A stretch of 64,000 bases of DNA from Bacillota bacterium (GCA_012689375.1 JAAZLO010000028.1:25665-89664); one strand, 5' to 3'; numbered from the stretch's first letter, positions 17,819-54,508 are shown. Translations and numbers: made by a program. Notes: generated by a model from the sequence alone, not told the origin.

Positions 17819-18742
17819 CTATTGGTACTCCCAACCCCGGATTATTTCCACTGCATGAGGAAGCGCATGTAAGATTGAATCAAGGCCTTCTTTAACTGCC
17901 TTCGGGTTTCCCGGCAAATTAATAATAAGAGTCCCCCCTCTTAACCCTGCTGTTGCCCGGCTAAGCATTGCATGGGGAGTTTTCCCAAGGCCTGATTGGA
18001 GCATTGCATGGGGAATTCCGGGAACTAATTTCTCTGACACTTCAATTGTGGCCTCCGGAGTAACGTCACGCGGACCTAAACCTGTCCCGCCCGTAGTAAG
18101 TATAAGATCCACATCAACAATATCCGCCATACGCTTAAGTTCATTTACAATCTTATCGTAATCATCAGGGATAAGTTCCCTGTCTGTTACTCTCCCTATA
18201 GATTTTATCGCATCCTCTATGACATCACCGCTTGTATCAACCCTTTCACCGCTGTACCCCCTGTCGCTTATCACAAGGATACCACAACGTACAGGAAAGC
18301 CTACCCTGATTATATCGCCTTGCTTTACTTCTCCGCCTCTGATTACTTTCGTAAAAATGCCCTCTTTCGGCATGATACATTTCCCGACTTGTTTCAATAT
18401 GGCACACCCGGAATGACATTCCTTCCCAATCTGGGTTACTTCAAGAATTACTTTTTCACCTATTCTCAACCAGACCCCTATAGGTAATTTAGGTAAATCA
18501 ATCCCGCGGACTGTTATGTTTTCGGCAAAAATTCCGGGGAATGCATCAAGACCGATATCAACCATTTTTTGTATGCTTCCCTCAGACAAAAGACTTATTT
18601 GCCTGTGCCAGGGACCCCCGTGGGCATCATTCTCCAATCCGTATCCATCGATAACTTTTGCCTTGCCTACGTCATGCTTAACTGTACCCTTTTCCCGGCT
18701 GATGCAAACTGCAGTAACTATTCCTTCGATTATGTGCCCCAT
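17819..18742 (-). CDS. MOSC-domain protein fused to MogA/MoaB-type molybdopterin adenylyltransferase
   Basis: The N-terminal ~145 aa carry the MOSC pattern (KVIDGYGLENDAHGG...RQISLL...ENITVRGIDL). The C-terminal ~160 aa are MogA/MoaB-like (GILVISDRG...LILTTGGTGLGPRDVTPEA...INLPGNP). Confidence 0.7.
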   Translation of the reverse strand: MGHIIEGIVTAVCISREKGTVKHDVGKAKVIDGYGLENDAHGGPWHRQISLLSEGSIQKMVDIGLDAFPGIFAENITVRGIDLPKLPIGVWLRIGEKVILEVTQIGKECHSGCAILKQVGKCIMPKEGIFTKVIRGGEVKQGDIIRVGFPVRCGILVISDRGYSGERVDTSGDVIEDAIKSIGRVTDRELIPDDYDKIVNELKRMADIVDVDLILTTGGTGLGPRDVTPEATIEVSEKLVPGIPHAMLQSGLGKTPHAMLSRATAGLRGGTLIINLPGNPKAVKEGLDSILHALPHAVEIIRGWEYQ

Positions 18743-18745
18743 ATT

Positions 18746-19249
18746 TTATTCCTCCCCAGGCCGAATAAATTCCCCGGTTTTTCCCCCGGACTTCCGTACC
18801 AACCTCAAATCACTGACTGTCATAGATCTGTCTACTGCTTTACACATATCATATACAGTGAGGGCAGCAACTCCTGCGCCCAGGAGAGCTTCCATTTCTG
18901 CACCGGTTTTTCCCACTGATTCAACGGTAACCCGAACCTCAATAATACCGTTTTCATCATCTGATTCAAATGATACATCTATACCTGTAACCTCAATGGA
19001 ATGACACAACGGAATAAGATCCGGGGTTTTTTTACAAGCCATAATTGCAGCAATTCTGGCTGTCCCAAAAACCTCACCTTTAGGGCCGGTACCGCTTTTA
19101 ATCATATTAAGGGTGGATTCAGACATAATAATTTTACACTTAGCCGTCGCCACACGCTGGGTATCCGCTTTAGAAGAAATACTTACCATTCTTGCAAAGC
19201 CTTCTTCATCAAGATGTGTAAGGACTCTTTCCGGCTTATTCAGTTCCAT
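18746..19249 (-). CDS. moaC: Cyclic pyranopterin monophosphate synthase MoaC
   Basis: 167 aa with conserved MoaC blocks (KADTQRVATA..., DLIPLCH, GVEMEAL-like). Confidence 0.9.
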   Translation of the reverse strand: MELNKPERVLTHLDEEGFARMVSISSKADTQRVATAKCKIIMSESTLNMIKSGTGPKGEVFGTARIAAIMACKKTPDLIPLCHSIEVTGIDVSFESDDENGIIEVRVTVESVGKTGAEMEALLGAGVAALTVYDMCKAVDRSMTVSDLRLVRKSGGKTGEFIRPGEE

Positions 19250-19296: not shown

Positions 19297-20325
19297 TCAG
19301 CCGCCGATTTTTGAAAGAGAAGGGTTTCCCCCGGAGCATGCCACTTCAACCTGGGCTATCTCACCGTTTTCAGGCTTTAGACTTACAGCCTTACGTATCA
19401 ACCCTGCGATAAATCCATCATCAGCCCCATCACGAAGGGGAGTCCTAAGATCAACGGATATATTAGAAAGTAAGCAAGGCAAAAGAAGGCCGTCAGCAGT
19501 CAGGCGAATCCGATTACAATTGGAACATATATGATCTCTCAAGGATATGAAGCCGATGCTTCCCTTAAATTCCGGAAACTTTATATAATTCGCAGGGCCT
19601 TTCCCTGCCTGATCCCTTTGATTATTTTCCCCGGCATTAGGATTAATAACGTATGCACCACGGGCTATCATTTCATTTCTTATCTCGCTTATAGGCATCA
19701 CATATCCGGCACCGAATTTCCACCCGTTATTCCAAAAGGGCATAAATTCAATGAACCGCACGATCCAGGGATGATCCTTCGTAAGCATCGCTAAATCCCG
19801 AATTTCATCATGGTTTACACCTTTCATTACTACCGTGTTAATTTTAATGGGAGAAAGTCCCGCACCTTCAGCTGCCTCCAACCCGGCAAGGACAGATTCA
19901 AGCTTTCCATGCCTGGTAATCCTCTTAAATCTTTCAGGCTTTAGAGTATCTAATGAAACATTTACCCGGTTAAGGCCCGCCTGGGATAATCTTGTGGCGA
20001 ACTTAGATAAAAGAACGCCGTTTGTACTCATGGATAAATCGCAAATACCGGGGATTTCAGATAAAAGAGAAACTAATGCCAAAATCCCCTGTCTTACAAG
20101 AGTTTCGCCTCCGGTAAGTCTGACACGGGTTATTCCAAGTCCGGATGCTATATTCACAATTCTTGCTAGTTCCTCAATGCGAAGGATATCAGAATGAGAT
20201 TTTAGTTTAACCCCTTCTTCAGGCATACAATAAATACATCTTAGATTACACCTATCTGTAACCGATACCCTAAGATATGTGATTTCCCGCCCAAACGGAT
20301 CTATAAGTTTAGTCATCCTTCCCAC
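19297..20325 (-). CDS. moaA: GTP 3',8-cyclase MoaA (radical SAM)
   Basis: The N-terminus reads YLRVSVTDRCNLRCIYCMPEEG (a CxxxCxxC radical-SAM cluster) and there is a C-terminal second cluster region. 342 aa. Confidence 0.9.
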   Translation of the reverse strand: MGRMTKLIDPFGREITYLRVSVTDRCNLRCIYCMPEEGVKLKSHSDILRIEELARIVNIASGLGITRVRLTGGETLVRQGILALVSLLSEIPGICDLSMSTNGVLLSKFATRLSQAGLNRVNVSLDTLKPERFKRITRHGKLESVLAGLEAAEGAGLSPIKINTVVMKGVNHDEIRDLAMLTKDHPWIVRFIEFMPFWNNGWKFGAGYVMPISEIRNEMIARGAYVINPNAGENNQRDQAGKGPANYIKFPEFKGSIGFISLRDHICSNCNRIRLTADGLLLPCLLSNISVDLRTPLRDGADDGFIAGLIRKAVSLKPENGEIAQVEVACSGGNPSLSKIGG

Positions 20326-22247
20326 ATTACCTCCCCACTGGAAGACACATCATACCCGCCAAGGGATGATACCTGATCTTTAAATTTTTCAGAGGACATG
20401 ATTTCCAGAAGCTTGTCCATGGATGACGAAGATAAAAACTCCTTAATAACAAGTAAATCATAACGCTCCCAAGCAACAGGGACAAAGTCCAAACCTAAAG
20501 CATTAGCCGCGGATTTTATACCGAGACCCACATCAGCCACGTTGTTTGCAACCGATGCAGCAACACCCATGTGAGTATATTCCTCATGCCCGTACCCGGG
20601 AATCTCATCTTGATCTATACCAAGTTTTTTAAGCTCAAGATCCAGAAGAATTCTTGTACCTGCCCCACGCTGCCTGTTTACAAAGGATATATCCAGGTTC
20701 GCAAGATTCGGGATTCCCTGGATATTCTTTGGGTTCCCCGGTTGAACAATCAATCCTTGTTCACGGGAAACAAGATTCACAAGGGCAAAGTTTTTTGGAT
20801 CAAGATACCGCTTTATATAAGGTACATTGTACTCCCCTGTCTCTTCGTCTAAGAGATGAACCCCTGCTATATGGGCTTCTCCTCTCCGCATTGCCATTAT
20901 ACCACCCATACTGCCTACATGTGTAGAAGATAAACTGATGCCAGGATATTCGGCTGCTAAAAAACTTCCCAGGATATCCAAAGCTAAATCATGGCTGCCG
21001 ATAGCAACAATTGCATTGTCTATCTCACTGAGATCCCTCAGTAGGTTTACAATAACCTCTGATGATTCGGGGATTCCCTGAGATGAACCGGGGATCTCCA
21101 CATAACCATCTGCCCTCACGAGAGACATTACGGCACCTGCTCCCCTAGCAAGGGGGGAAGCCACGTACCTGTCCCTAACCTTACCTACTTTAACCCTTAT
21201 AAATTCATCTACCCCGGGTGTGGAAACAATCCTTCGGGCGGAGACTGCCTTAACAATCGGCCTTTGTCTAGTTCTTTGTCCTAACAGCTTTGCTAAAAGA
21301 GGAAGGAGAAAAAGCCCACAGGACAAGGCTGCAGAAACCGGGTACCCCGGGATCCCGAGAAAAGGTTTATCGTTTATAATTCCTAAAATTGTAGGTTTCC
21401 CGGGTTTAATTGCAACTCCATGAATAATAAGCTCACCAATGGATTTTACAACATCTGATGTATAGTCTTCCCTGCCTGCAGATGAACCTGCATTTACCAC
21501 AATAATATCACCCATGGAGGAGGCCTTGTTGATAGATTCAGCCAAAGCTTCAGGTTCATCAGGGACAATATCTAAAAACACAGGCTCCCCTCCCCATTCT
21601 TTGACAAAACCTCCGATGATTCTCGAATTAAATTCAGTTATATCCCCGGTTTTAGGCGTAACTCCCGGAGAAATAAGTTCATCACCTGTAGGGATTATTA
21701 CAACTTTCGGCTTCCTGCGGACTACCACCTGGGTTATACCAGCAGCTAGCAATGCCCCTAAATCCACTGCGCGGATCCTATGATTTTCAGGGAGGACAAG
21801 CTCAGTCCTGACAATATCTTCTCCTACAGTCCGAACGTGTTGCCATGGTGTTGAAGGAGCAATTATCACAACTTCGTCTGCGGTAATCTCCACTAAATCT
21901 TCCATCATAATAACTGAATCAAAAGCCTTAGGAAGCGGATCCCCCGTATCTACAAATACCGCTTCTTCCCCTAACCTGAGTTTTAAAGGTTTAGTTTCAC
22001 TTGCACCAAAAGTCAGACGTGAGCGTGTTGCAATCCCATCCATGGCACATGAGTGATAGGCAGGTTGTGATAACCCGGCAAAGACAGGCTCGCCGGTCAC
22101 CCTAAAAAGAGCTCCCACGTCCACAGGGACAGTTTCACTTTCTATGCGGGAATCTAACCCACGCTTTTCCAACTGCCTAAAAAACTTGTCTTTTGCCTCT
22201 TGAAGCGGTGTTCCAATTAAATAGACGTCTTGCTTCTTCAATTTCAA
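20313..22247 (-). CDS. moeA: Molybdopterin molybdenum/tungsten-transferase MoeA fused to a C-terminal periplasmic-binding-protein-like (oxyanion-binding) domain
   Basis: The N-terminal ~400 aa are MoeA (SCAMDGIA, GDELISPG, GIPGYPVSA). The C-terminal ~230 aa form a PBP-like domain (IGSHDLALD...VGSMGGIMAMRRGEAHIAG...VNRQRGAGTR). It overlaps the moaA start by 13 nt. Confidence 0.75.
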   Translation of the reverse strand: MKLKKQDVYLIGTPLQEAKDKFFRQLEKRGLDSRIESETVPVDVGALFRVTGEPVFAGLSQPAYHSCAMDGIATRSRLTFGASETKPLKLRLGEEAVFVDTGDPLPKAFDSVIMMEDLVEITADEVVIIAPSTPWQHVRTVGEDIVRTELVLPENHRIRAVDLGALLAAGITQVVVRRKPKVVIIPTGDELISPGVTPKTGDITEFNSRIIGGFVKEWGGEPVFLDIVPDEPEALAESINKASSMGDIIVVNAGSSAGREDYTSDVVKSIGELIIHGVAIKPGKPTILGIINDKPFLGIPGYPVSAALSCGLFLLPLLAKLLGQRTRQRPIVKAVSARRIVSTPGVDEFIRVKVGKVRDRYVASPLARGAGAVMSLVRADGYVEIPGSSQGIPESSEVIVNLLRDLSEIDNAIVAIGSHDLALDILGSFLAAEYPGISLSSTHVGSMGGIMAMRRGEAHIAGVHLLDEETGEYNVPYIKRYLDPKNFALVNLVSREQGLIVQPGNPKNIQGIPNLANLDISFVNRQRGAGTRILLDLELKKLGIDQDEIPGYGHEEYTHMGVAASVANNVADVGLGIKSAANALGLDFVPVAWERYDLLVIKEFLSSSSMDKLLEIMSSEKFKDQVSSLGGYDVSSSGEVMWEG

Positions 22248-22280: not shown

Positions 22281-23510
22281 CTAAAACAATATTACACTGA
22301 CCCAATCACCTTTTTCCACACCTTCAGCATGCTCAGGAACGATCATTACACCGTCAGAACTGATAAGCCCGGAAATCGCGGCGGATTTACTGAAGATCGG
22401 TTCAGCCCATACTTCCCCTTTTTCTCTAAAGAGTCTGACACTAAGGTAGTCCTCCCGCCCTGCGGCAGAAGCTACATTTCGGATGACCCTGGCCTGTATG
22501 GTCTGTCTGTAAAGCGTTCCCCCCATCCATCTTGCAATTGCAGGGGCAACAAAAAGGTTAAACACAATCATACAGGACATAGGGTGGCCGGGTAAACCGA
22601 TAATAGGTTTTTCATTGGCTACAGCGAGGATAGTGGGTTTCCCGGGTTTTATCGCAATACCATGAGTAATCACACCTGGACTGCCCAATGTCTGAATGGC
22701 ATTACGCGTAAAGTCCCGTTCCCCTATGGAACTCCCGCCGGATACAACAACCATATCCGATTCTTTATGGGCTTTAGCTATCATATCCTGCATGGAAGCA
22801 CAATCATCTTTTACAATACCCCATAGCTTCGGTATACCACCTATTGCTTGGATCCCGCTGTAAAGAGAATAAGCATTCATATCCCTGACCTGCCCCGGGC
22901 GGGGAATTTCATAAATATCGGTGAGCTCATCTCCGGTAGAAATTATCGCAACCCTAGGCCCTTGCGCAACTTCCACCTCGGTGATCCCTGTGGCTGCCAA
23001 AGCCGCTATATCAACAGGGCGTAGCCGCTTCCCCCGGGGAAGCATCAATGATCCGACGGGAATATCCTCTTCGGCACTTAGAACATTTTCCCCCGGTGCC
23101 ACTGAATCAGCCACTGCAATAATTTTATCATCCATTGCCTCGCACATTTCTACCATTATTACCGAATCCGCACCCTCAGGCATCATACCGCCTGTGGCTA
23201 TTTCCGCACATTCATGAGGATTAAGGGATAAATCGGTATGTTCACCCATACGAATTGAACCGACCAATGTAAGAAGAGCGGGGAGCCCTTCGCTTGCACC
23301 GAAAGTTGAGGATGCCGGGACTGCATAACCATCCTTGGTAGATCTGGCAAACCCGGGTAAATTCACAGGGGATATAATATCCTGAGCCGTAATACGGTTA
23401 ACGGCATTGCAAATATTAACTGTTTCAGTTTCATTCGGTCCGGCTTTGATATATTGCTTAAACTGATTCCACGCTTCGGCACGTGGAGTCAGAGACAGAA
23501 ACATTGTCAT
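22281..23510 (-). CDS. moeA: Molybdopterin molybdenum/tungsten-transferase MoeA, second paralog
   Basis: MoeA blocks are present (KDGYAV, ISTGDEL, GLPGHPMS). I set the start at MTMFLSL, which has a GGTGGA ribosome binding site 7 nt upstream. The tracker ORF extends further upstream. Either start overlaps the tupC 3' end by about 50 nt. Confidence 0.75.
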   Translation of the reverse strand: MTMFLSLTPRAEAWNQFKQYIKAGPNETETVNICNAVNRITAQDIISPVNLPGFARSTKDGYAVPASSTFGASEGLPALLTLVGSIRMGEHTDLSLNPHECAEIATGGMMPEGADSVIMVEMCEAMDDKIIAVADSVAPGENVLSAEEDIPVGSLMLPRGKRLRPVDIAALAATGITEVEVAQGPRVAIISTGDELTDIYEIPRPGQVRDMNAYSLYSGIQAIGGIPKLWGIVKDDCASMQDMIAKAHKESDMVVVSGGSSIGERDFTRNAIQTLGSPGVITHGIAIKPGKPTILAVANEKPIIGLPGHPMSCMIVFNLFVAPAIARWMGGTLYRQTIQARVIRNVASAAGREDYLSVRLFREKGEVWAEPIFSKSAAISGLISSDGVMIVPEHAEGVEKGDWVSVILF

Positions 23511-24273
23511 ATTGTTTTCCACCATCTTCCCGGAGAAGCCAATTAGCAGAACCTGCAAGTTGTGATAATGCACCACGCATTTCTTTATACAGCACCTGGC
23601 GCACATGACCGTCTGCTATAATTTTTCCGCCTTCCATAATTACTGTCCTGTCAGCAAGAAACGGGATCTCTGTAACATCATGAGTGACAAATACCGTTGT
23701 TACTCCGGTTTTTTTGATTATCCGCCCTAATTCCGTAAGAAGCGCCATCCTCGTGGGCACATCCAATGAACTCATGGGTTCATCAAGAAGTAGGAGTTCA
23801 GGTTTTAAAACCATGGCCCGCGCCAGGCTTACTCTTTGGCTTTCCCCTCCAGAGAGAGCGCGTCCATGCCGTTTCGCCAAATCTCCGATCCCGAAAAGAT
23901 CAAGGGTTTCATTAACTCTAGCTTCTACTTCGTTCTTAGGCACGCCTCTCATTCTAAGCCCAATAGCAACATTTTCGAAAACTGTGATATCCAGGAGGTA
24001 CGGCCTTTGTAGGACCATGGCCATGCGCCTCCTGGCTTCAATTACATTAATATCTTTGCCTACAATGCGCCCTCCGACACATACTTTACCTTCCCCCGGG
24101 TTGAGGAGGCAAGCTATTATCTGCAAGAGGGTACTTTTACCCGCACCGTTTGCACCTATCACAGCAACGTTTTCCCCGGGTAATACCTTAAAATCCGGGA
24201 CATCCAGGGTTATCCTTTGGCCCCTTTTAAGTTTAATATCCTCAAGTTCGATAATAGCCTGCCTCATATTCAC
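23458..24273 (-). CDS. tupC: ABC transporter ATP-binding protein (tungstate/molybdate uptake, TupC-like)
   Basis: Walker A motif GANGAGKST, signature LSGGESQRVSLARA, Walker B motif LLLLDEP. It has a ~40-aa C-terminal extension. Confidence 0.75.
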   Translation of the reverse strand: MNMRQAIIELEDIKLKRGQRITLDVPDFKVLPGENVAVIGANGAGKSTLLQIIACLLNPGEGKVCVGGRIVGKDINVIEARRRMAMVLQRPYLLDITVFENVAIGLRMRGVPKNEVEARVNETLDLFGIGDLAKRHGRALSGGESQRVSLARAMVLKPELLLLDEPMSSLDVPTRMALLTELGRIIKKTGVTTVFVTHDVTEIPFLADRTVIMEGGKIIADGHVRQVLYKEMRGALSQLAGSANWLLREDGGKQYDNVSVSDSTCRSVESV

Positions 24274-24311: not shown

Positions 24312-25003
24312 TCAGCTCCGCTGTTGAATTCGGGTAAGGCTTGCATTAATAACATAGGTAATCGCCACTAAAATAATACTCAGTGCAATTGCAAATCCGA
24401 AATTACCTTTTGATACTTCCATGGAAGTTGCTGTGGTAAGCACCCTGGTTTGACCAAGCAGGTTGCCACCTACCATCATGGAAGCACCGACCTCTGCGAC
24501 TACTCTGCCGAATCCTGCCATAATTGATGCAAGCACAGAAAGCCTTGCCTCACGTATAAGAATGTACAGCAACTGCCACGGTGATGCTCCGAGGGAGAGC
24601 ATCTGCAGGCGTATACCTGGATCTAGCTGACCGACACCTGCCATAGTAAAACCTGTTATTATCGGCAAGGCTATCGCTGTCTGGGCAATAACCATGGCAG
24701 TCGGCGTATACATTATCCTAAGAAACCCCAAGGGTCCGGTCCGCCAAAGGAATATACTGACCCAGAGCCCGGCAACAACAGGGGGAAGGCCCATCCCGGT
24801 ATTGACAAGCCCTGCTATCCGTCGCCTTCCCCGATATGACCACAAGGAAAGCGCCGTTCCGAAAGGGACACCAATTACAGCACCAATTATGGTGGCAAGT
24901 CCGGAAACCCTGAGAGTCAGAAGGGCAATACGGAGCACTTCAGGGTCTCTGCTGATAAAAAGCTGAAAAGCGCCGGTAACCCCTTCTGCAATCAGATCCA
25001 ATT
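24312..25003 (-). CDS. tupB: ABC transporter permease (TupB-like)
   Basis: A 5-6 transmembrane-segment permease carrying the EAA-type loop. The likely start is a TTG 6 nt after a GGGTGAG ribosome binding site, immediately following the tupA stop. The tracker ORF extends upstream into tupA. Confidence 0.7.
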
Positions 25004-25008
25004 TTTTC

Positions 25009-25857
25009 TCACCCTTCGAGATCTTCCATGCTCTTATCTGCATCAGGGAAGAACAACGGGCTTCCGTACTTATCAACACCGAAGTCCTTGACAATACTTT
25101 GGACTTCTTCTGATACCATGAATTCTACAAATGCCTGTCCGCCACGTCCGTCCACAACTTTGTGCTTGTCCGGATTAACCTGCATAACGTGATAAATATT
25201 AAGAAGAATCGCATCCCCTTCCACTAATATTTCGAGGTCTAAGCGATCTTTCATTGAAAGGTACGTCCCCCGATCAGTTAGACAATATGCCAATTTTTCA
25301 TTGGCGATATTAAGTGTATTTGCCATCCCGGTCCCGGCTTCCAGGTACCATTCCTTACCTGACGGTTCAAACCCGAGCTTATTCCAGACTTGCAACTCTT
25401 TCTTATGTGTGCCTGAATCATCAGCCCTGGAAACGAATGTTGCTTTCGCATCTACGATCTTTTCCAAAGTTCCCAAAGCGGATTTAAGGCCTTTAACTCC
25501 TGCGGGATCCTCAGGCGAGCCTACAATTACGAAGTCATTATGCATTACAAGTTGCCTGTTAATTACATCCCCGGCTTCAACCAGTTCCATTTCTGCAGCG
25601 GGAGCATGACAAAGAAGTACATCTGCCTCACCCTTCTGACCAAGGGCAAGGGCTGCACCAGTTCCTACTGCAATTGTTTTTACATTGTATCCGGTTTTCT
25701 CTTGGAAGATTGGGAGAAGGACATCTAGAAGGCCGGTGTCCCTCGTGCTAGTGGTGGTTGCGAGTATGAGTTCCTTCGGGGCTCCGATGGCTGTAAATCC
25801 TACGCAGGCTAAAATCATTAAGGCAATAACGGAAATCAACATGAATCGTCTTGGCAT
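25009..25857 (-). CDS. tupA: Tungstate ABC transporter substrate-binding protein (TupA-like)
   Basis: Signal peptide followed by the diagnostic TupA motif ATTTSTRDTGLLD. 282 aa. The ribosome binding site AGGAGA is present. Confidence 0.8.
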   Translation of the reverse strand: MPRRFMLISVIALMILACVGFTAIGAPKELILATTTSTRDTGLLDVLLPIFQEKTGYNVKTIAVGTGAALALGQKGEADVLLCHAPAAEMELVEAGDVINRQLVMHNDFVIVGSPEDPAGVKGLKSALGTLEKIVDAKATFVSRADDSGTHKKELQVWNKLGFEPSGKEWYLEAGTGMANTLNIANEKLAYCLTDRGTYLSMKDRLDLEILVEGDAILLNIYHVMQVNPDKHKVVDGRGGQAFVEFMVSEEVQSIVKDFGVDKYGSPLFFPDADKSMEDLEG

Positions 25858-25865
25858 TTAATAAC

Positions 25866-26000
25866 ATCTCCTTTCCAAGTATGGGAGGCTGCCAGGTTCC
25901 CCTGGGAGCCCTCGGATCACACCTGTAATTGTGTGATCGCCGGTCAACTTGCCATTACCGTGTTCTTTGAGGCAAGATGACTCGGAGAAAAACTTATTGT
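25866..26000 (-). promoter_or_regulatory. Molybdenum-cofactor (Moco/Tuco) riboswitch candidate in the tupA leader
   Basis: The minus-strand leader reads ...CUCCGAG...CCGAGGGCUCCCAGGGGAACCUGGCAGCCUCCCAUACUUGGAAAGGAG AUG. The E. coli moaA Moco aptamer 3' half reads CCAGGGCGAAGG...GCCUCCCGUAUCUGGAAAGG. In both, the terminal CCUCCC...GGAAAGG overlaps the ribosome binding site. Confidence 0.55.
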
Positions 26001-26030
26001 CTGTCCCCCAGAATCACCCCCTACTGTTTC

Positions 26031-27497
26031 CTAATACAGCATAAATCTAATATGGTAATTGCGAACGGTTTGGGTATATTCCCTATCATCCCCACAAATA
26101 TCAGGAGGAACCGTATCGCCTGTCTTTACATCCTTTTCGTCACTATCATACACAAATTGCGGAGGATTGCAAGAAGCCAAAGTTATATCCCCCCGGGAAA
26201 TATTATAATTATCAACTAATTCCGTGCCAGGATAATAATGCTGTAGTATATCAATATAATCATAGATAGGGGTCCCGTCCCTTGTACACATGAGAGCCAT
26301 ACCTTGTGCCCCCCACTGGCTTAAACCGACACCGTGACCGCTCCCTACACCGTCGAACACCAAAACAGTTGAAGATTTGATTTCCTTTATACCATTAATA
26401 ATTATCTCCTGCCCGTCACTTTTACGCACGGCAATATCAAATCTGGGGCTTGCCAAACCAATCCTGTGACGAATTTGTTCCCTGGTAAAACTTACTGTTT
26501 TGTCCCCGGTGCGAAAATTATATGCCAGTATCTTATCGCCTGATCGAATGGAAGGTTCAATCCAGCCTGAACCATTAAGAGGTAATCCTATCTTTTTAAA
26601 GAGATCCTCACCTTTTAAAACAAGGGGCTTATCCCAGCGGTAGTAAGGGGACATCCAGTCGAAATCTTCCCTTGCGATAAGGTAGGGCTCGTTACTTCCC
26701 CCTAACCATACCTCCTCATCACCTTCGGTTTTTCCGCCTCCTGAAGAAAAATAATGAGCTTTGATAGGGATATCCTCATAAATTAGGACTTCGCCATAGG
26801 TTTCGTGAACTGCATCCTTAAATGCCCTAATTTGATTTTCTCCTGTATACACTTGGGATAATACAGTATCGTCTACATCAAAACTACAAGACGCTTTTTC
26901 AAACTTTTGCCTTAAAGCATAAGTCCTGGATGCAACAGCTTGGGCTTTAAGCGCCTCAGGTGCCCATGTAGAATATACCTCTCCCGCGAGCACGCCTTCA
27001 GTATAGGTTTCTAAATCTACAAGATTAATTATAATTATCTCAGGGGATCCTGACTGCGAAATCCCGTACGATATTTGAAGCCCTCCCGGATAGCATCTGT
27101 CTCCTATTTGGAAGGAGGAGCATCCGTACCGAACAGGCTCAATACGTAACCCATCGAAAAAAGAAACAGACTCACCAGATGGACAACAAAGGATAATTTC
27201 CTTTAGTATATTGTCTGTTTTTATTGTGAAAGGACTGTTTGATCTGGTAAGAGTCATTTGTTGATCTGTACTTTCTCCCTTATATAACAAGCCCTTATCC
27301 ATATCCTTATATTCCGTGGGTGTTAATGGGAAAACACAGGCATCTTCTTTCAGATAAAACTGAAACGGAGGGGTTACGGATAATGCAACCCTCATAATAA
27401 TCCGGGGCTCCCCTCCCAATACTGATCTGCAGCAAACTATAATAAAAACAATTATCATGATTGCCGGGAAAACAATCCTACGCATGAATTCTTTCAT
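26031..27497 (-). CDS. SpoIID/LytB-domain protein with an extra N-terminal domain
   Basis: The C-terminal ~300 aa carry SpoIID/LytB signatures (AVASRTYAL, YFSSGGGKTEG). N-terminal transmembrane segment. At 488 aa it is longer than canonical SpoIID. Confidence 0.7.
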   Translation of the reverse strand: MKEFMRRIVFPAIMIIVFIIVCCRSVLGGEPRIIMRVALSVTPPFQFYLKEDACVFPLTPTEYKDMDKGLLYKGESTDQQMTLTRSNSPFTIKTDNILKEIILCCPSGESVSFFDGLRIEPVRYGCSSFQIGDRCYPGGLQISYGISQSGSPEIIIINLVDLETYTEGVLAGEVYSTWAPEALKAQAVASRTYALRQKFEKASCSFDVDDTVLSQVYTGENQIRAFKDAVHETYGEVLIYEDIPIKAHYFSSGGGKTEGDEEVWLGGSNEPYLIAREDFDWMSPYYRWDKPLVLKGEDLFKKIGLPLNGSGWIEPSIRSGDKILAYNFRTGDKTVSFTREQIRHRIGLASPRFDIAVRKSDGQEIIINGIKEIKSSTVLVFDGVGSGHGVGLSQWGAQGMALMCTRDGTPIYDYIDILQHYYPGTELVDNYNISRGDITLASCNPPQFVYDSDEKDVKTGDTVPPDICGDDREYTQTVRNYHIRFMLY

Positions 27498-49471: not shown

Positions 49472-52400
49472 ATGAAAACGGAGTTTTGCCGAAAGACTTT
49501 TTTAACAGGTATTATTATTGCTCTATTGATAGGAATCGCTTTTACTGTCAAATCGTTTCCAGTTAACGGCAAATCAATTAAAAATTATATGTATATGCAT
49601 GTGGATGATCGCGTCCTTTCATTTTCTGAGAATGCTTTGCTTTATGTAAGGGGGAAAGGGTTGACAAGGATTGACTTCCGTATATGGAAGTTCAATCCGA
49701 ATCTTTATTACAGAAGCCATGGGTCATTATCCCTATGCCTGGAGCGGATGCCGGAAAATGCAAAGCTAATCCAGGAATTTTCAGAATACCCCCGCCTGAA
49801 AAAAGCTGGTGAGGAATTTTCCGTGAATATAAAAATTCACCCTGAGGGCCCAGGGGGGTACTTGATTAAGGCCCGGGATAATGAAGGGCGTGAAGTATGC
49901 GAATGGTTTCTTGTAACTGAACTTGGGCTTATAACAAAACAAAGCCAAGATAAGCTTTTAGTGTACGCCTGCGCGTTTGATAAAGGTGAACCACAAACCG
50001 GTGTGGATATTACAGTATATGACGGGAGTATGGAGGTAATCGGGAAAGGTATTACCGATGGTAACGGGTTCTATATCCTAAATGCAAAAGATATCCCTGA
50101 AGGGGGTATTTCTATAGTCGGTACCAAGGGGGACCCCGGAACAGAGAGTTTTGCCGAAGTAAAGTCATGGAATTATTGGGAAAATGCTGGCTATAATGTG
50201 TACATTTATACTGACAGGCCTATATACAGACCTGGTCAGAAAGTATCATGGAAAGGTATTCTCAGGGAAAGTACCGGTGGGGGGTTTAAGGTTTTAGGTG
50301 GGGAGGAAATCAGTGTTGAAATCAGGGATCCCAAAGATGCATGTATATATAAAATAGAGGCTGAAACCAATAATTACGGGTCCTTCACTGGAGATGTTAT
50401 ATTAGGGGATGAGCCATCTTTAGGTACTTATAGGGTCCTTGTCAAAGTCAGGGGGAGTGTCCATTATGGCCGATTTAAAGTAGCTGAATACAGAAAACCT
50501 GAGTATGAAATTAAAGTGAATACTGACAAGCAGGTGTATATTGCAGGTGATGATATATCCTGTAAAATTGAGGCTGCTTATTATTTTGGGAAACCTGTCC
50601 CTGATGGGAAAGTAAAATATGCAGTTTATTCTCAAACGTATTACCGGCCTTTTCGTTCTACAGAGGACCTGGGCTACTTTTCAATTACAGATGATGATTA
50701 CGGGTATTATGGGGAATTGGTGGATTCAGGGGAAGGAGTAACGTCAGGGGACGGAACCATGGGATTTACTATAAAGACAGGAAGGACAGAAAGGACCAAA
50801 AGGCTGTTTATTGAGACAACAGTTACAGACGAAAGTCATAGGGAGGTTACAGGCAGGGCTTCAATAATATTAGCCAGGGGCCTTTTTGATTTAACGGCCC
50901 AACCTACAGAATATATTGTATCACCGGGGGGTTCGGCGGAAATTCATGTAAAAGGGGTTACCCTTGAAGAAAAGCCTTATTCCGTAGAATTCACGTGGCA
51001 ATCCATGAGAATCACATGGGATGGTAATAAATCAATAAGGTGGAAGGAGCAATCCGGAGTAGCGACCACAGGTATCGACGGTAAGGGTGTCTTCGAATTT
51101 ACTCCGGAAGAGGAAGGTTCGTATGTGGTGGAAGTATCCGCGACTGATGCCAGAGGTAACCATATAGTTGAAGAAGCATACATCTGGGTGGCAAGCAGTA
51201 CAGGCAGGCAATGGAATTACGGAGGAACTGAAATTGAAATAGTGTCTGATAAGGATGTTTACGAATTAGGAGATACAGCTAAAATCCTTGTGAATACGAC
51301 TCTTGACGATACTTGGGCAATTATTACTGTGGAAGGCCGGGATCTCCTTTTTTATGAAGCATTAAAGCCTACAGGATGCATGCGCCTGTTTGAAATCCCG
51401 ATAACTGAGGAATTCTGTCCTAATTGTTTTTTTACCGTGACACTCGTTCGGGGGAAGCAGTTTTATTCCCGGGAAAAAACTATATATGTCTCAATGAAGG
51501 ATAAGTTCCTAGATGTATCCATAATCCCCGATAAGGAAATATACAGCCCCGGTGAAAAGGGTTCTTATACAATTAAGATCCGAGATCACAAAGGTCGCCC
51601 TGTTCAGGCAGAGCTTTCCTTGGGTGTTGTCGATGCATCTATATATGCCGTACAAAAAGAACTTGCTCCTGATATCAGAAAAGCATTTTACGGTTCGGTT
51701 TGGAATATGACAGTTACAAACTATTCCTTCCCTCAATGGTATTTTGGGGGTGCAGATAAAGAGGGGGATGCATCAGAGATTCGTAAGGATTTTCCTGATA
51801 CTGCCCTTTGGGAGCCTATAATTCTCACTGACAAAAAAGGCACGGCGAGAATCAATTTCCAAATGCCTGATTCCTTAACTACGTGGAAAGCCACTGTACG
51901 GGCGCATACCCGGGAAACTCAGGTAGGGTTTGCTACAAATGATGTAATAACTACAAAGGATTTCATTTGCAGGCTGTCCACACCAAGATTCTTTACTTTG
52001 GGTGATACGGCCTATGTATCCACTATTATCCACAACTATACTGAAAACAGGGTGAATGCGGAGGTTAAACTTAGGGCTGAGGGAATAACGCTATGTGACA
52101 AGGATAAGCGCACTGTGGTACTGTCTGCAGGAGAGCAGGTATCCCTGGATTGGAAAGTTATATGTGATAAAGCAGGGATAGCAAAATTCACCGTCTTAGC
52201 TAAAGCAGGGAGAGCACAGGATGCCTTAGAGCTCAGTGTACCCGTAATCCCTTTCGGTAGAAGTATAAGAGAGTTTAAAAGCGGTGAAATAGGAGATAGC
52301 CCAGGAAATAACGATAAAGCACATATTGAATTTAATATCCCTGAAGATGTTCTGGATAATACGACAGATGTTGAAGTAAGGCTTGCCCCGTCAGTGGCAG

Positions 52401-54508
52401 CAACTGCATTGGGGGCACTGGAATATCTTACATCTTACCCGTATGGGTGTGTTGAACAAACAATGAATTCATTTCTTCCTAATATTATTGTATCTGGGAC
52501 CCTTGGGGAACTTGGCATTGAAATACCGGAAATTACGAAAGATCTTCCGAAAATGGTTGAGGCGGGCCTTGCCCGAATATACAGGTATCAGCATTATGAA
52601 GGCGGTTGGGGTTGGTGGGAATTTGATAAGCCTAATTCAAGGATGACAGCCTATGCAGTATATGGCCTTGAACTTGCAAAAAGAGCAGGTTTTAATGTTG
52701 ATGAAGAAGTGTTTATGCGAGGCAGAAGGGCCTTAGGGAATTTCCTTGATACCCCGCGGAATGTTGATGATCTCATATATAATTTATTTGTTATGTCTGA
52801 AACCGGGGAAAAAGCTTTGCCTCGTCTTGATGAGATGATTCTGAGAAAAAGGGAGGCCTCTAATTATTCCCTTGCCCTTCTTGCTTTAACTCTGAAAAAC
52901 ATAGGCAGACAGGATGATGCAGCACTATTATGCAAGGATCTGCTCAGGCTTTCCCGGAGTGACGGGATCAGTACCTACTGGGAATCTTCTGTCAACGAAT
53001 GGTACTGGGCTGATAATCGTGTTGAAACAACTGCATACGCACTTTTAGCTATGCTTTCTATAGATCCCGGTAACCCCAGGGCTTCTCAGGTTGTGCGGTG
53101 GTTATCAGGGGAGCGTTTGGGTATAGCCTGGAATTCCACAAAGGACACAGCCATTGCTGTTATGGCTTTAACTGAATATATGAAGGTCCATGGGGATTTA
53201 GGATCGAATGTATCCGCTGCGATAGAACTTAACGGGAGGCGGGTTAAGGGGATAAAGTTCACCCAAAAGAATTTATGGGATAAAGAACAGATAATCAAAA
53301 TAGATCCGAGCCAGTTAGTGAAAGGGAAAAATGAACTTATTATTGAGAAAACAGGGGAAGGAAGGCTCTATTATTCCGTTGCAAGTAAATACTATACACC
53401 CTCTGAAATTATTATGCCTGAAGAAGGCGGCCTTAGGGTAAGGCGGGGTTATTATTACAAAACACAGGATGACAGTGTTTATGAGCCTGTCACAGGCCCT
53501 GTGAAACCAGGGGATGAGATAATAGTCAGGATTACTATAAAAACGGAGAGTCCCCAAACGTATATTATGATTGAGGATCCTGTCCCGTCAGGATTTGAGG
53601 TAGTGGATACGTCTTATGATATTTACAGTTGGGATTTTTGGTACGGCCGTAAGGAAATCCATGATACGAAAGTAGCCGTTTTCAGTGCTTATCTTGAAGA
53701 AGGTGAGAATGAAATAATATATTCCATCAGGGCGGAGCGGCCGGGTGAATATAAAATAATGCCTACAAAAGCTTGGGGAATGTATGCGCCTGATATTTAC
53801 GGCAGCTCGGAAAGTTCAGAAATAGTATGCCAAGTACCGGTATTGGCTGCATTTTCCACCACTGTTAAAGAATCTGAATTAAACCGGAATCATAATATAG
53901 CCCTTGCTTCTTCTGTAGTTAATGGATCTGTTATTCAGCCCGGAGAGATATTTTCCCTTGACAAGGCTCTCGGACCAAGATCGGAATCCAATGGTTATAA
54001 AAATGCCCGTATTCTTTCAGGGGGGAAAAGCTTGCCCGGGACGGCAGGGGGGATCTGTCAAGTATCCACAACGCTGTACAATGTTGCTTTAAGAGCAGGC
54101 TTGGAAATAATTGAACGCCACCCTCATTCACAGCCTATAGACTATGTATCTCCTGGGCTTGATGCTACAATCAGTGATGAAGCCGGGCTTGATTTACAAT
54201 TTAAAAACCGGTTAGATGTACCTCTCATCATTAATATGCATATAGAGGGTGCAAGGCTTATTGCCGAAATAAAAGGGAAAGTTTCTAAGCCTCAAAACGT
54301 ATACATTACAACTGAAATCCTAAACGTGGAGAGGCCTCGCCTTTTGGGGGACAGTTCCGATGATTTTAAGGTCTCAGGCGGGAGAAATGGAATTCGGGTT
54401 GCCGTATGGCGAACTATGGATACCTGTGGTACAATTCAACGGGAGCTTATATCGGAGGATTATTACAAACCTATCCATGCGTTGGCATGGGGTATGAGAC
54501 AATATTAA
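49472..54508 (+). CDS. Bacterial alpha-2-macroglobulin-family protein (thioester-type) with a C-terminal VanW-like domain
   Basis: 1678 aa with an N-terminal signal anchor. The thioester region YPYGCVEQTMNSFLPNII (compare human A2M, PYGCGEQNMVLFAPNIY) is embedded in MG-domain-like beta-rich repeats. The last ~200 aa carry VanW-type blocks: PGEIFSLD, GGICQVSTTLYNVAL, ERHPHS and GLDATISDEAGLDLQFKN. Confidence 0.7.
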   Translation: MKTEFCRKTFLTGIIIALLIGIAFTVKSFPVNGKSIKNYMYMHVDDRVLSFSENALLYVRGKGLTRIDFRIWKFNPNLYYRSHGSLSLCLERMPENAKLIQEFSEYPRLKKAGEEFSVNIKIHPEGPGGYLIKARDNEGREVCEWFLVTELGLITKQSQDKLLVYACAFDKGEPQTGVDITVYDGSMEVIGKGITDGNGFYILNAKDIPEGGISIVGTKGDPGTESFAEVKSWNYWENAGYNVYIYTDRPIYRPGQKVSWKGILRESTGGGFKVLGGEEISVEIRDPKDACIYKIEAETNNYGSFTGDVILGDEPSLGTYRVLVKVRGSVHYGRFKVAEYRKPEYEIKVNTDKQVYIAGDDISCKIEAAYYFGKPVPDGKVKYAVYSQTYYRPFRSTEDLGYFSITDDDYGYYGELVDSGEGVTSGDGTMGFTIKTGRTERTKRLFIETTVTDESHREVTGRASIILARGLFDLTAQPTEYIVSPGGSAEIHVKGVTLEEKPYSVEFTWQSMRITWDGNKSIRWKEQSGVATTGIDGKGVFEFTPEEEGSYVVEVSATDARGNHIVEEAYIWVASSTGRQWNYGGTEIEIVSDKDVYELGDTAKILVNTTLDDTWAIITVEGRDLLFYEALKPTGCMRLFEIPITEEFCPNCFFTVTLVRGKQFYSREKTIYVSMKDKFLDVSIIPDKEIYSPGEKGSYTIKIRDHKGRPVQAELSLGVVDASIYAVQKELAPDIRKAFYGSVWNMTVTNYSFPQWYFGGADKEGDASEIRKDFPDTALWEPIILTDKKGTARINFQMPDSLTTWKATVRAHTRETQVGFATNDVITTKDFICRLSTPRFFTLGDTAYVSTIIHNYTENRVNAEVKLRAEGITLCDKDKRTVVLSAGEQVSLDWKVICDKAGIAKFTVLAKAGRAQDALELSVPVIPFGRSIREFKSGEIGDSPGNNDKAHIEFNIPEDVLDNTTDVEVRLAPSVAATALGALEYLTSYPYGCVEQTMNSFLPNIIVSGTLGELGIEIPEITKDLPKMVEAGLARIYRYQHYEGGWGWWEFDKPNSRMTAYAVYGLELAKRAGFNVDEEVFMRGRRALGNFLDTPRNVDDLIYNLFVMSETGEKALPRLDEMILRKREASNYSLALLALTLKNIGRQDDAALLCKDLLRLSRSDGISTYWESSVNEWYWADNRVETTAYALLAMLSIDPGNPRASQVVRWLSGERLGIAWNSTKDTAIAVMALTEYMKVHGDLGSNVSAAIELNGRRVKGIKFTQKNLWDKEQIIKIDPSQLVKGKNELIIEKTGEGRLYYSVASKYYTPSEIIMPEEGGLRVRRGYYYKTQDDSVYEPVTGPVKPGDEIIVRITIKTESPQTYIMIEDPVPSGFEVVDTSYDIYSWDFWYGRKEIHDTKVAVFSAYLEEGENEIIYSIRAERPGEYKIMPTKAWGMYAPDIYGSSESSEIVCQVPVLAAFSTTVKESELNRNHNIALASSVVNGSVIQPGEIFSLDKALGPRSESNGYKNARILSGGKSLPGTAGGICQVSTTLYNVALRAGLEIIERHPHSQPIDYVSPGLDATISDEAGLDLQFKNRLDVPLIINMHIEGARLIAEIKGKVSKPQNVYITTEILNVERPRLLGDSSDDFKVSGGRNGIRVAVWRTMDTCGTIQRELISEDYYKPIHALAWGMRQY

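Follow-up and report, generated by a model that had tools for sequence, protein, structure and literature searches.

The window analysed here is a stretch of 64,000 nucleotides from an uncultured spore-forming Bacillota (Firmicutes) MAG. On its minus strand, an operon that begins with the tungstate-binding protein gene tupA is preceded by a leader that a sequence-only reading had proposed as a Moco-type riboswitch candidate of the tungsten-cofactor-associated subclass, which is reported to lack the P3 stem. The locus raises the question of whether the leader is such an RNA and, if so, which metal form of the cofactor it senses.

The RF01055 (Moco/Tuco) riboswitches have been a known class since 2008, and the present copy would be detected by any annotation that uses Rfam. 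In the survey by Regulski et al., 58 of the 176 RNAs have no P3; the P3-containing RNAs were found "exclusively" with genes for MPT/Moco synthesis and Moco enzymes, whereas the P3-lacking RNAs accompany Tuco-related genes, with tupA and tupB as tungsten-cofactor markers (PMC2408646). The E. coli moaA riboswitch was repressed in experiment by Moco, not by the tungsten form (PMC2408646). Whether P3 is present continues to serve as the criterion for assigning molybdenum- or tungsten-cofactor sensing, for example in the 2024 study of E. limosum, which described P3-lacking RNAs before tupABC and named P3 a signature of Mo-dependent switches (PMC11725836). The tupA leader of the window is a genuine and ordinary member of this family, in its P3-containing form. 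The existence of one more riboswitch is not news; the interest of the locus is narrower and lies in a mismatch between architecture and gene association. Its one unusual feature is that P3, thought to mark the molybdenum-sensing versions, stands before a tungstate-uptake operon.

A full-length RF01055 aptamer in the tupA leader

The cmscan search against Rfam 15 showed a match to the full RF01055 model at 25999..25852 on the minus strand (66.9 bits, E = 6.3e-14). The match covers model positions 1-135 of 135, is not truncated and lies far above the gathering score of 36, which places the leader in the family and bears out the proposal of a Moco-type riboswitch. A cmsearch with RF01055 had been named as the test that could refute that proposal, and the Rfam scan is this test. 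No other RNA family and no second copy of RF01055 was found in the 64-kb window, either at the gathering score or at E <= 0.05. The 166-nt leader is also more stable than each of its 200 dinucleotide shuffles (z = -3.9).

The location given earlier, 25866-26000, is correct for most of the element: the aptamer lies inside these coordinates plus 14 nt downstream. The accompanying description covered the 3' half alone, since the RNA quoted there, CCGAGGGCUCCCAGGGGAACCUGGCAGCCUCCCAUACUUGGAAAGGAGAUG, is located at 25913..25865 on the minus strand. The E. coli moaA stretch cited for comparison agrees with the real moaA leader that was retrieved.

Architecture of the aptamer and the P3 stem

The full-length aptamer (25852..25999, minus strand, as are all features of the aptamer and the operon) comprises five helices, which were located by the cmscan alignment and the folds. 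P1 pairs UCUCC (25984..25988) with GGAGA (25867..25871), and its outer extension pairs AAUAA (25998-25994) with UUAUU (25864-25860). The P2 hairpin, GUCAUCUUGCC ... GGCAAGUUGAC, spans 25943..25981 and is supported by covariation in the relatives. The P3 hairpin at 25915..25938 is formed by GAUCACAC (25938-25931) and GUGUGAUC (25922-25915) around the loop AAUUACAG, and is seen in the cmscan alignment, the MFE structure and the covariation. P4 (25886..25911) pairs GGGCU-C-CCAGG with CCUGG-C-AGCCU and is capped by a GGAA tetraloop (25900-25897). P5 is a mini-hairpin, CC-CAUACUU-GG (25875..25885), whose 7-nt loop was placed by cmscan and by loop comparison. The junction nucleotides CUCCGAG, AGGG, GCCUCCC and UGGAAAGGAG are all found, together with P1, P2, P4 and P5, in the cmscan alignment, the MFE folds and RNAalifold, indicating that the leader can adopt the Moco aptamer junction, as the sequence-only reading had demanded of it.

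The single-sequence MFE structure of 25999..25840 contains P2-P5, a P1-type helix and the outer extension, and buries the GGAG of P1. Its P1 is a few nucleotides off the Rfam register and covers the same GGAG; the fold of a construct from 25990 onward adopts the Rfam register of P1. The P4 loop of the window, GGAA, belongs to the GNRA type but is not GAAA, which is found in E. coli and in all ten close relatives (alignment A2). The receptor bulge in P2 is degenerate, with CCUCAA/UAAUGG versus CCUAAG/UAUGG. The deviations of tetraloop and receptor may be a co-change, and the pair of them resembles the GCAA/no-receptor cases of Regulski et al. (PMC2408646).

P3 is the element in which the window RNA departs from the earlier description. 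Folding had been called for to decide on the presence or absence of P3, and it showed a strong helix of 8 bp, GAUCACAC/GUGUGAUC, at the P3 positions of the model and in every fold. P2 and P4 lie 28 nt apart, compared with 3-4 nt in bona fide P3-lacking RNAs, and the helix carries compensatory changes in the relatives. Membership in the P3-lacking, Tuco-associated structural subclass is thus refuted on structure. The gene context, with tupA downstream, is the one point in favour of that membership, which we regard as extremely improbable. Of the two properties that define the P3-lacking ('Tuco') subclass, the window RNA shows the association with the tungsten genes tupA, tupB and tupC and does not show the absence of P3; the presence of P3, which defines the P3-containing ('Moco') subclass, is shown by it.

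Just 5' of the aptamer, the G-run UGGGGGA (26004-26010) can form pairs with two aptamer segments, CUCC in P1 and CCC in P5, and so release the Shine-Dalgarno sequence. At -59.8 versus -57.1 for the P1-enforced fold, this conformer is favoured by 2.7 kcal/mol, and on the computed energies it could, speculatively, be a candidate for the ligand-free ON state. An ORF with a SpoIID/LytB domain (26031-27497, minus strand, 488 aa, the domain ending near residue 428) stops 31 nt before the aptamer. With so short a distance, the promoter of the riboswitch lies inside the 3' tail of this ORF, or else the leader is transcribed by read-through. A consensus scan found promoter-like sites at 26172-26145 and 26230-26202, both at chance level.

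Conservation in relatives

A set of 80 tupA loci, one genome per species, was collected via an alignment of 16 TupA proteins, and all the loci were scanned with Rfam. The scan gave 23 RF01055 matches in 20 of the 80 loci. P3 is present in five of the 23 (L001, UBA4981; L002, DTU025; L003; L004; L005), and these five are exactly the loci that have the tupA-tupB-tupC order of the window. The aptamer abuts the tupA start in all five. The next gene is moeA in L001, L002, L004 and L005, and the contig of L003 ends inside tupC; L001 additionally has the comB and spoIID genes that lie upstream in the window. The remaining 18 matches, which belong to Pelotomaculum, Desulfofundulus, Caldanaerobacter, Dehalococcoidales and others, show just the two hairpins P2 and P4.

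When metagenomes were scanned with the TupA of the window, 11 more contigs were obtained, with TupA identities of 68-85%, and the riboswitch abuts tupA in every one of them. P3 is visible in all ten contigs that are long enough, L084 being cut by the contig end. The sequence of L094 is that of L002. The genome and metagenome sets overlap, and their counts are not independent. Another 11 metagenome matches, ahead of more distant tupA genes, are without P3. Taken over both sets, P3 occurs in none of the ~30 tupA-linked riboswitches outside the clade. Three long matches (L143, L162 and L122a) were considered as P3 carriers outside the clade and were rejected, since their extra length comes from P2 insertions or a short duplication. 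In L143 (1580-1805) and L162 (1752-1923), an insertion of 50-100 nt in the distal part of P2 mimics a P3-containing RNA when judged by length alone.

Tandem pairs of P3-lacking RF01055 aptamers occur upstream of tupA in L008 (1124-1414), L009 (1995-2273), L103 (600-914) and L122 (626-923), and recall those described for Syntrophomonas wolfei. In L008, a second and more divergent tupA paralogue lies between the tandem aptamers and the main tupA.

Within the clade, P3 varies in sequence, with GAUCACAC/GUGUGAUC in the window and GGCCAC/GUGGCC, AGCCGC/GCGGCU and GAGGUGC/GCACCUC in relatives, and in length between roughly 24 and 100 nt. Covariation was analysed in an alignment of 12 P3-containing sequences, comprising E. 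coli moaA and 11 tupA-linked sequences. Unguided RNAalifold predicted P1-P5 from this alignment. The pair count showed that 94.2% of the cells are paired and that 15 of the 33 pairs have changes on both sides, compared with 5.1 on average in the shuffles; in 500 shuffles the count never came to 15, and slid controls gave 3 or fewer. Five of the six P3 pairs are compensatory. Alignment A2, made with MAFFT, puts the 3' strand of the window P2 four columns off register, and some of the "unpaired" P2 cells are therefore alignment artefacts.

These results bear on the explanation that the resemblance arose by chance or that the leader is a non-functional relic with no regulatory role. A family match with E = 6.3e-14, covariation above that of all 500 shuffles and of all slid controls, and a riboswitch position and synteny that are kept down to 62% TupA identity leave hardly any probability for it. 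We regard it as nearly certain that the tupA leader carries an RF01055 translational OFF riboswitch.

The Shine-Dalgarno sequence lies within P1

The GGAG at 25871-25868 is the only Shine-Dalgarno sequence ahead of the downstream ORF, and it sits within the 3' strand of P1, in agreement with the sequestration of the ribosome binding site that had been proposed. The start codon is a different one from that proposed. The AUG that directly follows the GGAG (25867-25865) is out of frame with tupA, and a stop codon follows in the tupA frame; the start of tupA is the ATG at 25857, 10 nt past the GGAG, which opens a 282-aa ORF (MPRRFMLISV...ILATTTSTRD). The out-of-frame AUG at 25867 was considered as the start of a uORF and rejected, since it abuts the Shine-Dalgarno sequence and its conservation is accounted for by the P1 pairing AUCUCC/GGAGAU. 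GGAGAUG is kept in 10 of the 11 tupA-linked P3-containing sequences. In the 12-sequence alignment, GGAAAGGAG occurs in each of the 11 tupA-linked sequences, with GGAAAGGUG in its place in E. coli moaA; in the tupA-linked sequences the start codon follows after 5-12 nt.

A search for terminator-like hairpins in the stretch from the aptamer to the start codon found no intrinsic terminator. With no terminator and no room for one, control is thus placed at translation initiation, by direct sequestration of the Shine-Dalgarno sequence in P1. The alternative is that the aptamer works on transcription, through termination that is intrinsic or depends on Rho, or on the stability of the mRNA, and not primarily on translation initiation. 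Terminators are used by many Firmicute riboswitches, including some RF01055 members, and untranslated mRNA is often exposed to Rho or RNases. However, no terminator-like site is present from the aptamer to the start codon, only 10 nt separate the Shine-Dalgarno sequence in P1 from the AUG, and the design with the Shine-Dalgarno sequence in P1 is kept in all the relatives and is identical to that of E. coli moaA. We therefore consider control at the level of transcription or mRNA stability very unlikely.

We infer the following course of regulation by translational control. The aptamer, with P1-P5 arranged around a multi-stem junction, would bind a metal-pyranopterin cofactor. Binding would stabilize P1, whose 3' strand contains the tupA GGAG, and the outer extension of P1 would cover the sequence up to position -3 of the tupA AUG. 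When the cofactor is plentiful, the ribosome binding site would be buried and tupA would not be translated.

The tungstate-uptake and cofactor operon

The operon begins, as had been stated, with a TupA-type binding protein carrying the TTTST motif, which occupies residues 34-38, and continues with TupB, TupC and cofactor genes. The tupA gene (25009..25857) encodes a tungstate-binding protein of 282 aa, identified by its NCBIfam and PDB matches and its pocket residues. Its best and only NCBIfam match is NF041772 (E = 7e-70), with 235.4 bits below the equivalog cut-off of 400. Among the solved structures, TupA matches D. alaskensis TupA (PDB 5MY5, E = 4e-59) and PDB 3LR1 (E = 1e-57). The pocket residues T34-S37 (TTTS), H84, R144, T150 and D195 are invariant in the 16-protein TupA alignment, and all the equivalents in the D. 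alaskensis TupA pocket, TTTS, His59, Arg118 (R144 here), Thr124 and Asp170, are retained.

The permease gene tupB (24312..25001) has an inferred TTG start at 25001, 8 nt past the tupA stop, which was obtained from a start scan; its product scores 248.8 bits against NF038017, over the cut-off, and matches the TupB model NF041773 with E = 2e-47, under the equivalog cut-off. The ABC ATPase gene tupC (23458..24273) was identified by PF00005, and its best NCBIfam match is the tungstate ATPase WtpC. Two moeA paralogues follow. The first (22281..23510; MoeA_N, MoCF_biosynth and MoeA_C) has an inferred start near 23510 that overlaps the end of tupC and is based on a start-codon scan and on where the homologue alignments begin. 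The second (20313..22247; NF011068, 745.8 bits, cut-off 534) is fused to a PBP_like (PF12727) domain of the oxyanion-binding type. The moeA pair directly behind tupABC may be a metal-selective insertase pair. Next are moaA, encoding GTP 3',8-cyclase (19297..20325; TIGR02666, 338 bits, above the cut-off), moaC (18746..19249; PF01967 and TIGR00581, above the cut-off) and a gene identified by its domain matches as a fusion of a MOSC domain with a MogA/MoaB-type MoCF_biosynth domain (17819..18742). This fusion gene is probably the last gene of the operon; a 120-nt gap with a promoter-like site, not above chance, separates it from the next gene.

The RF01055 aptamer is thus located in the 5' leader of transport and cofactor genes for molybdenum or tungsten and is joined to an expression platform. 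The operon holds moaA, moaC, mogA-type and moeA genes, yet it opens with tupABC, the Tuco marker of Regulski et al. (PMC2408646). Comparison of 38 ORFs of the 64-kb window with Pfam showed no molybdenum or tungsten enzyme and no modABC, and the remainder are housekeeping and sporulation genes, which give no pointer to the metal used by the organism. The largest ORF of the window encodes 1678 aa (49472-54508, plus strand).

Repression of tupA would probably reduce the downstream genes along with it. The genes tupB, tupC, the two moeA, moaA, moaC and MOSC-mogA would fall with tupA through translational coupling, polarity or mRNA decay.

Which metal cofactor is sensed

The architecture of the RNA speaks for the Moco class, whereas the gene context, with tupABC first and the moeA paralogues adjacent, speaks for the tungsten cofactor. 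Throughout the clade, the locus and its relatives depart from the published gene-association rule that RNAs with P3 belong to Moco and those without P3 to Tuco. They form a counter-example from gene association to a rule that was itself built on gene association alone, and no published discussion of this mismatch in the clade was found in the literature searched. To our knowledge, ligand binding has been demonstrated for no P3-lacking RNA.

The structural evidence favours the molybdenum form. The P5 loop has 7 nt in all seven P3-containing RNAs compared, including E. coli moaA, and in 2 of 18 P3-lacking RNAs (Fisher p = 7.5e-5, for sequences that are not phylogenetically independent). As P3 and a P5 loop of 7 nt rather than 6 nt are both class marks in this sample, we lean towards an aptamer that senses the molybdenum form, Moco or Mo-MPT, with TupABC as the group-VI oxyanion importer of the cell. 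The moaA, moaC, mogA-type and moeA genes of the operon suggest the same, being the gene class reported for P3-containing RNAs, and so does the nanomolar affinity of known TupA proteins for molybdate, which for the D. alaskensis protein is 6 nM, next to 6 pM for tungstate (PMC5517513). Against Moco sensing stand the first position of tupABC, which are the tungsten markers of Regulski et al., and the absence of P3 from the E. limosum tupABC RNA and from the ~30 sampled tupA-linked RNAs. Given an RF01055 translational OFF riboswitch, specificity of the Moco type is the reading that we favour with modest confidence. As a whole, the locus is best explained, and somewhat probably so, as a P3-containing RF01055 OFF switch that resembles E. 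coli moaA and leans towards Moco. In such a cross-metal circuit, the molybdenum cofactor may shut off both tungstate uptake and the shared pterin synthesis.

The same RNA with the same OFF mechanism of Shine-Dalgarno sequestration could instead respond to the tungsten cofactor (Tuco, W-MPT) or to either metal form. P3 would then be no determinant of specificity, and the switch would simply let the end product feed back on the uptake of tungstate and the assembly of the tungsten cofactor. The first genes of the operon are tupABC, and all the pocket residues of the characterized tungstate-selective TupA are conserved. Two moeA paralogues directly follow tupABC, an arrangement that is tungsten-specific in Methylorubrum extorquens, where moeA clustered with tup genes forms a tungsten-specific insertion module (PMC13197769); feedback logic thus argues for the tungsten form as the sensed product. 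The length of P3, from ~24 to ~100 nt, and its unconserved sequence in the clade suit a peripheral element and not an element of the pocket, and the P3 rule is based on correlation of gene associations alone (PMC2408646). However, E. coli moaA, the only P3-containing RNA that has been tested, is untriggered by the tungsten form (PMC2408646). In addition, P3 goes together with a second difference, in the length of the P5 loop beside the conserved core, which suggests two structurally distinct classes, and every other sampled tupA-linked aptamer is without P3. We consider sensing of the tungsten cofactor or of both metal forms possible but rather unlikely. Tentatively, this RNA might be the first natural aptamer in which P3 is combined with a response to the tungsten cofactor. 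If it were, the widely used rule that P3 means molybdenum and its absence tungsten would be wrong. The tupA-linked aptamers with and without P3 are a natural pair for direct testing of metal specificity.

Comparison with known systems

The window RNA closely resembles the E. coli moaA riboswitch (PMC2408646). Both have five helices including P3, a 7-nt P5 loop and the conserved GCCUCCC...UGGAAAGG core; in both, the Shine-Dalgarno sequence lies in the 3' strand of P1 in a translational OFF design, and the controlled genes include those for cofactor biosynthesis, among them moaA and moaC. The differences lie mainly in the controlled genes and the host. The first genes controlled are tupABC and two moeA paralogues in the window and moaABCDE in E. 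coli. The P4 tetraloop is GGAA in the window, with a degenerate receptor, and GAAA in E. coli. The hosts are an uncultured spore-forming Bacillota and a gamma-proteobacterium, respectively, and no promoter context of the ModE or FNR type is evident at the window locus.

The P3-lacking tupABC RNAs of E. limosum (PMC11725836), Caldanaerobacter, Desulfofundulus, Pelotomaculum and Dehalococcoidales share with the window RNA the Rfam family, the core and the downstream tupA, tupB and tupC, and presumably the feedback logic. They have 3-4 nt at the place of the 24-nt P3 hairpin of the window and mostly a 6-nt P5 loop. Many of the P3-lacking RNAs are found at a distance of 150-1300 nt upstream of tupA, and some of them occur in tandem or ahead of a second paralogue of tupA, whereas the aptamer of the window abuts tupA. 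The expression platforms also differ: a separate RBS-sequestor hairpin serves the tupABC RNA of E. limosum (PMC11725836), and in the window P1 itself takes this role.

Symbiobacterium thermophilum (L082, 4792-5853), considered as a cultured relative, has a tupABC operon closely related to that of the window, with a TupA that is 67% identical. Upstream of it, a divergent gene encodes a fusion of a LysR-type HTH with a PBP domain resembling TupA. Judged from the genes, this regulator looks as if a protein takes the place that the riboswitch has before tupA in the window.
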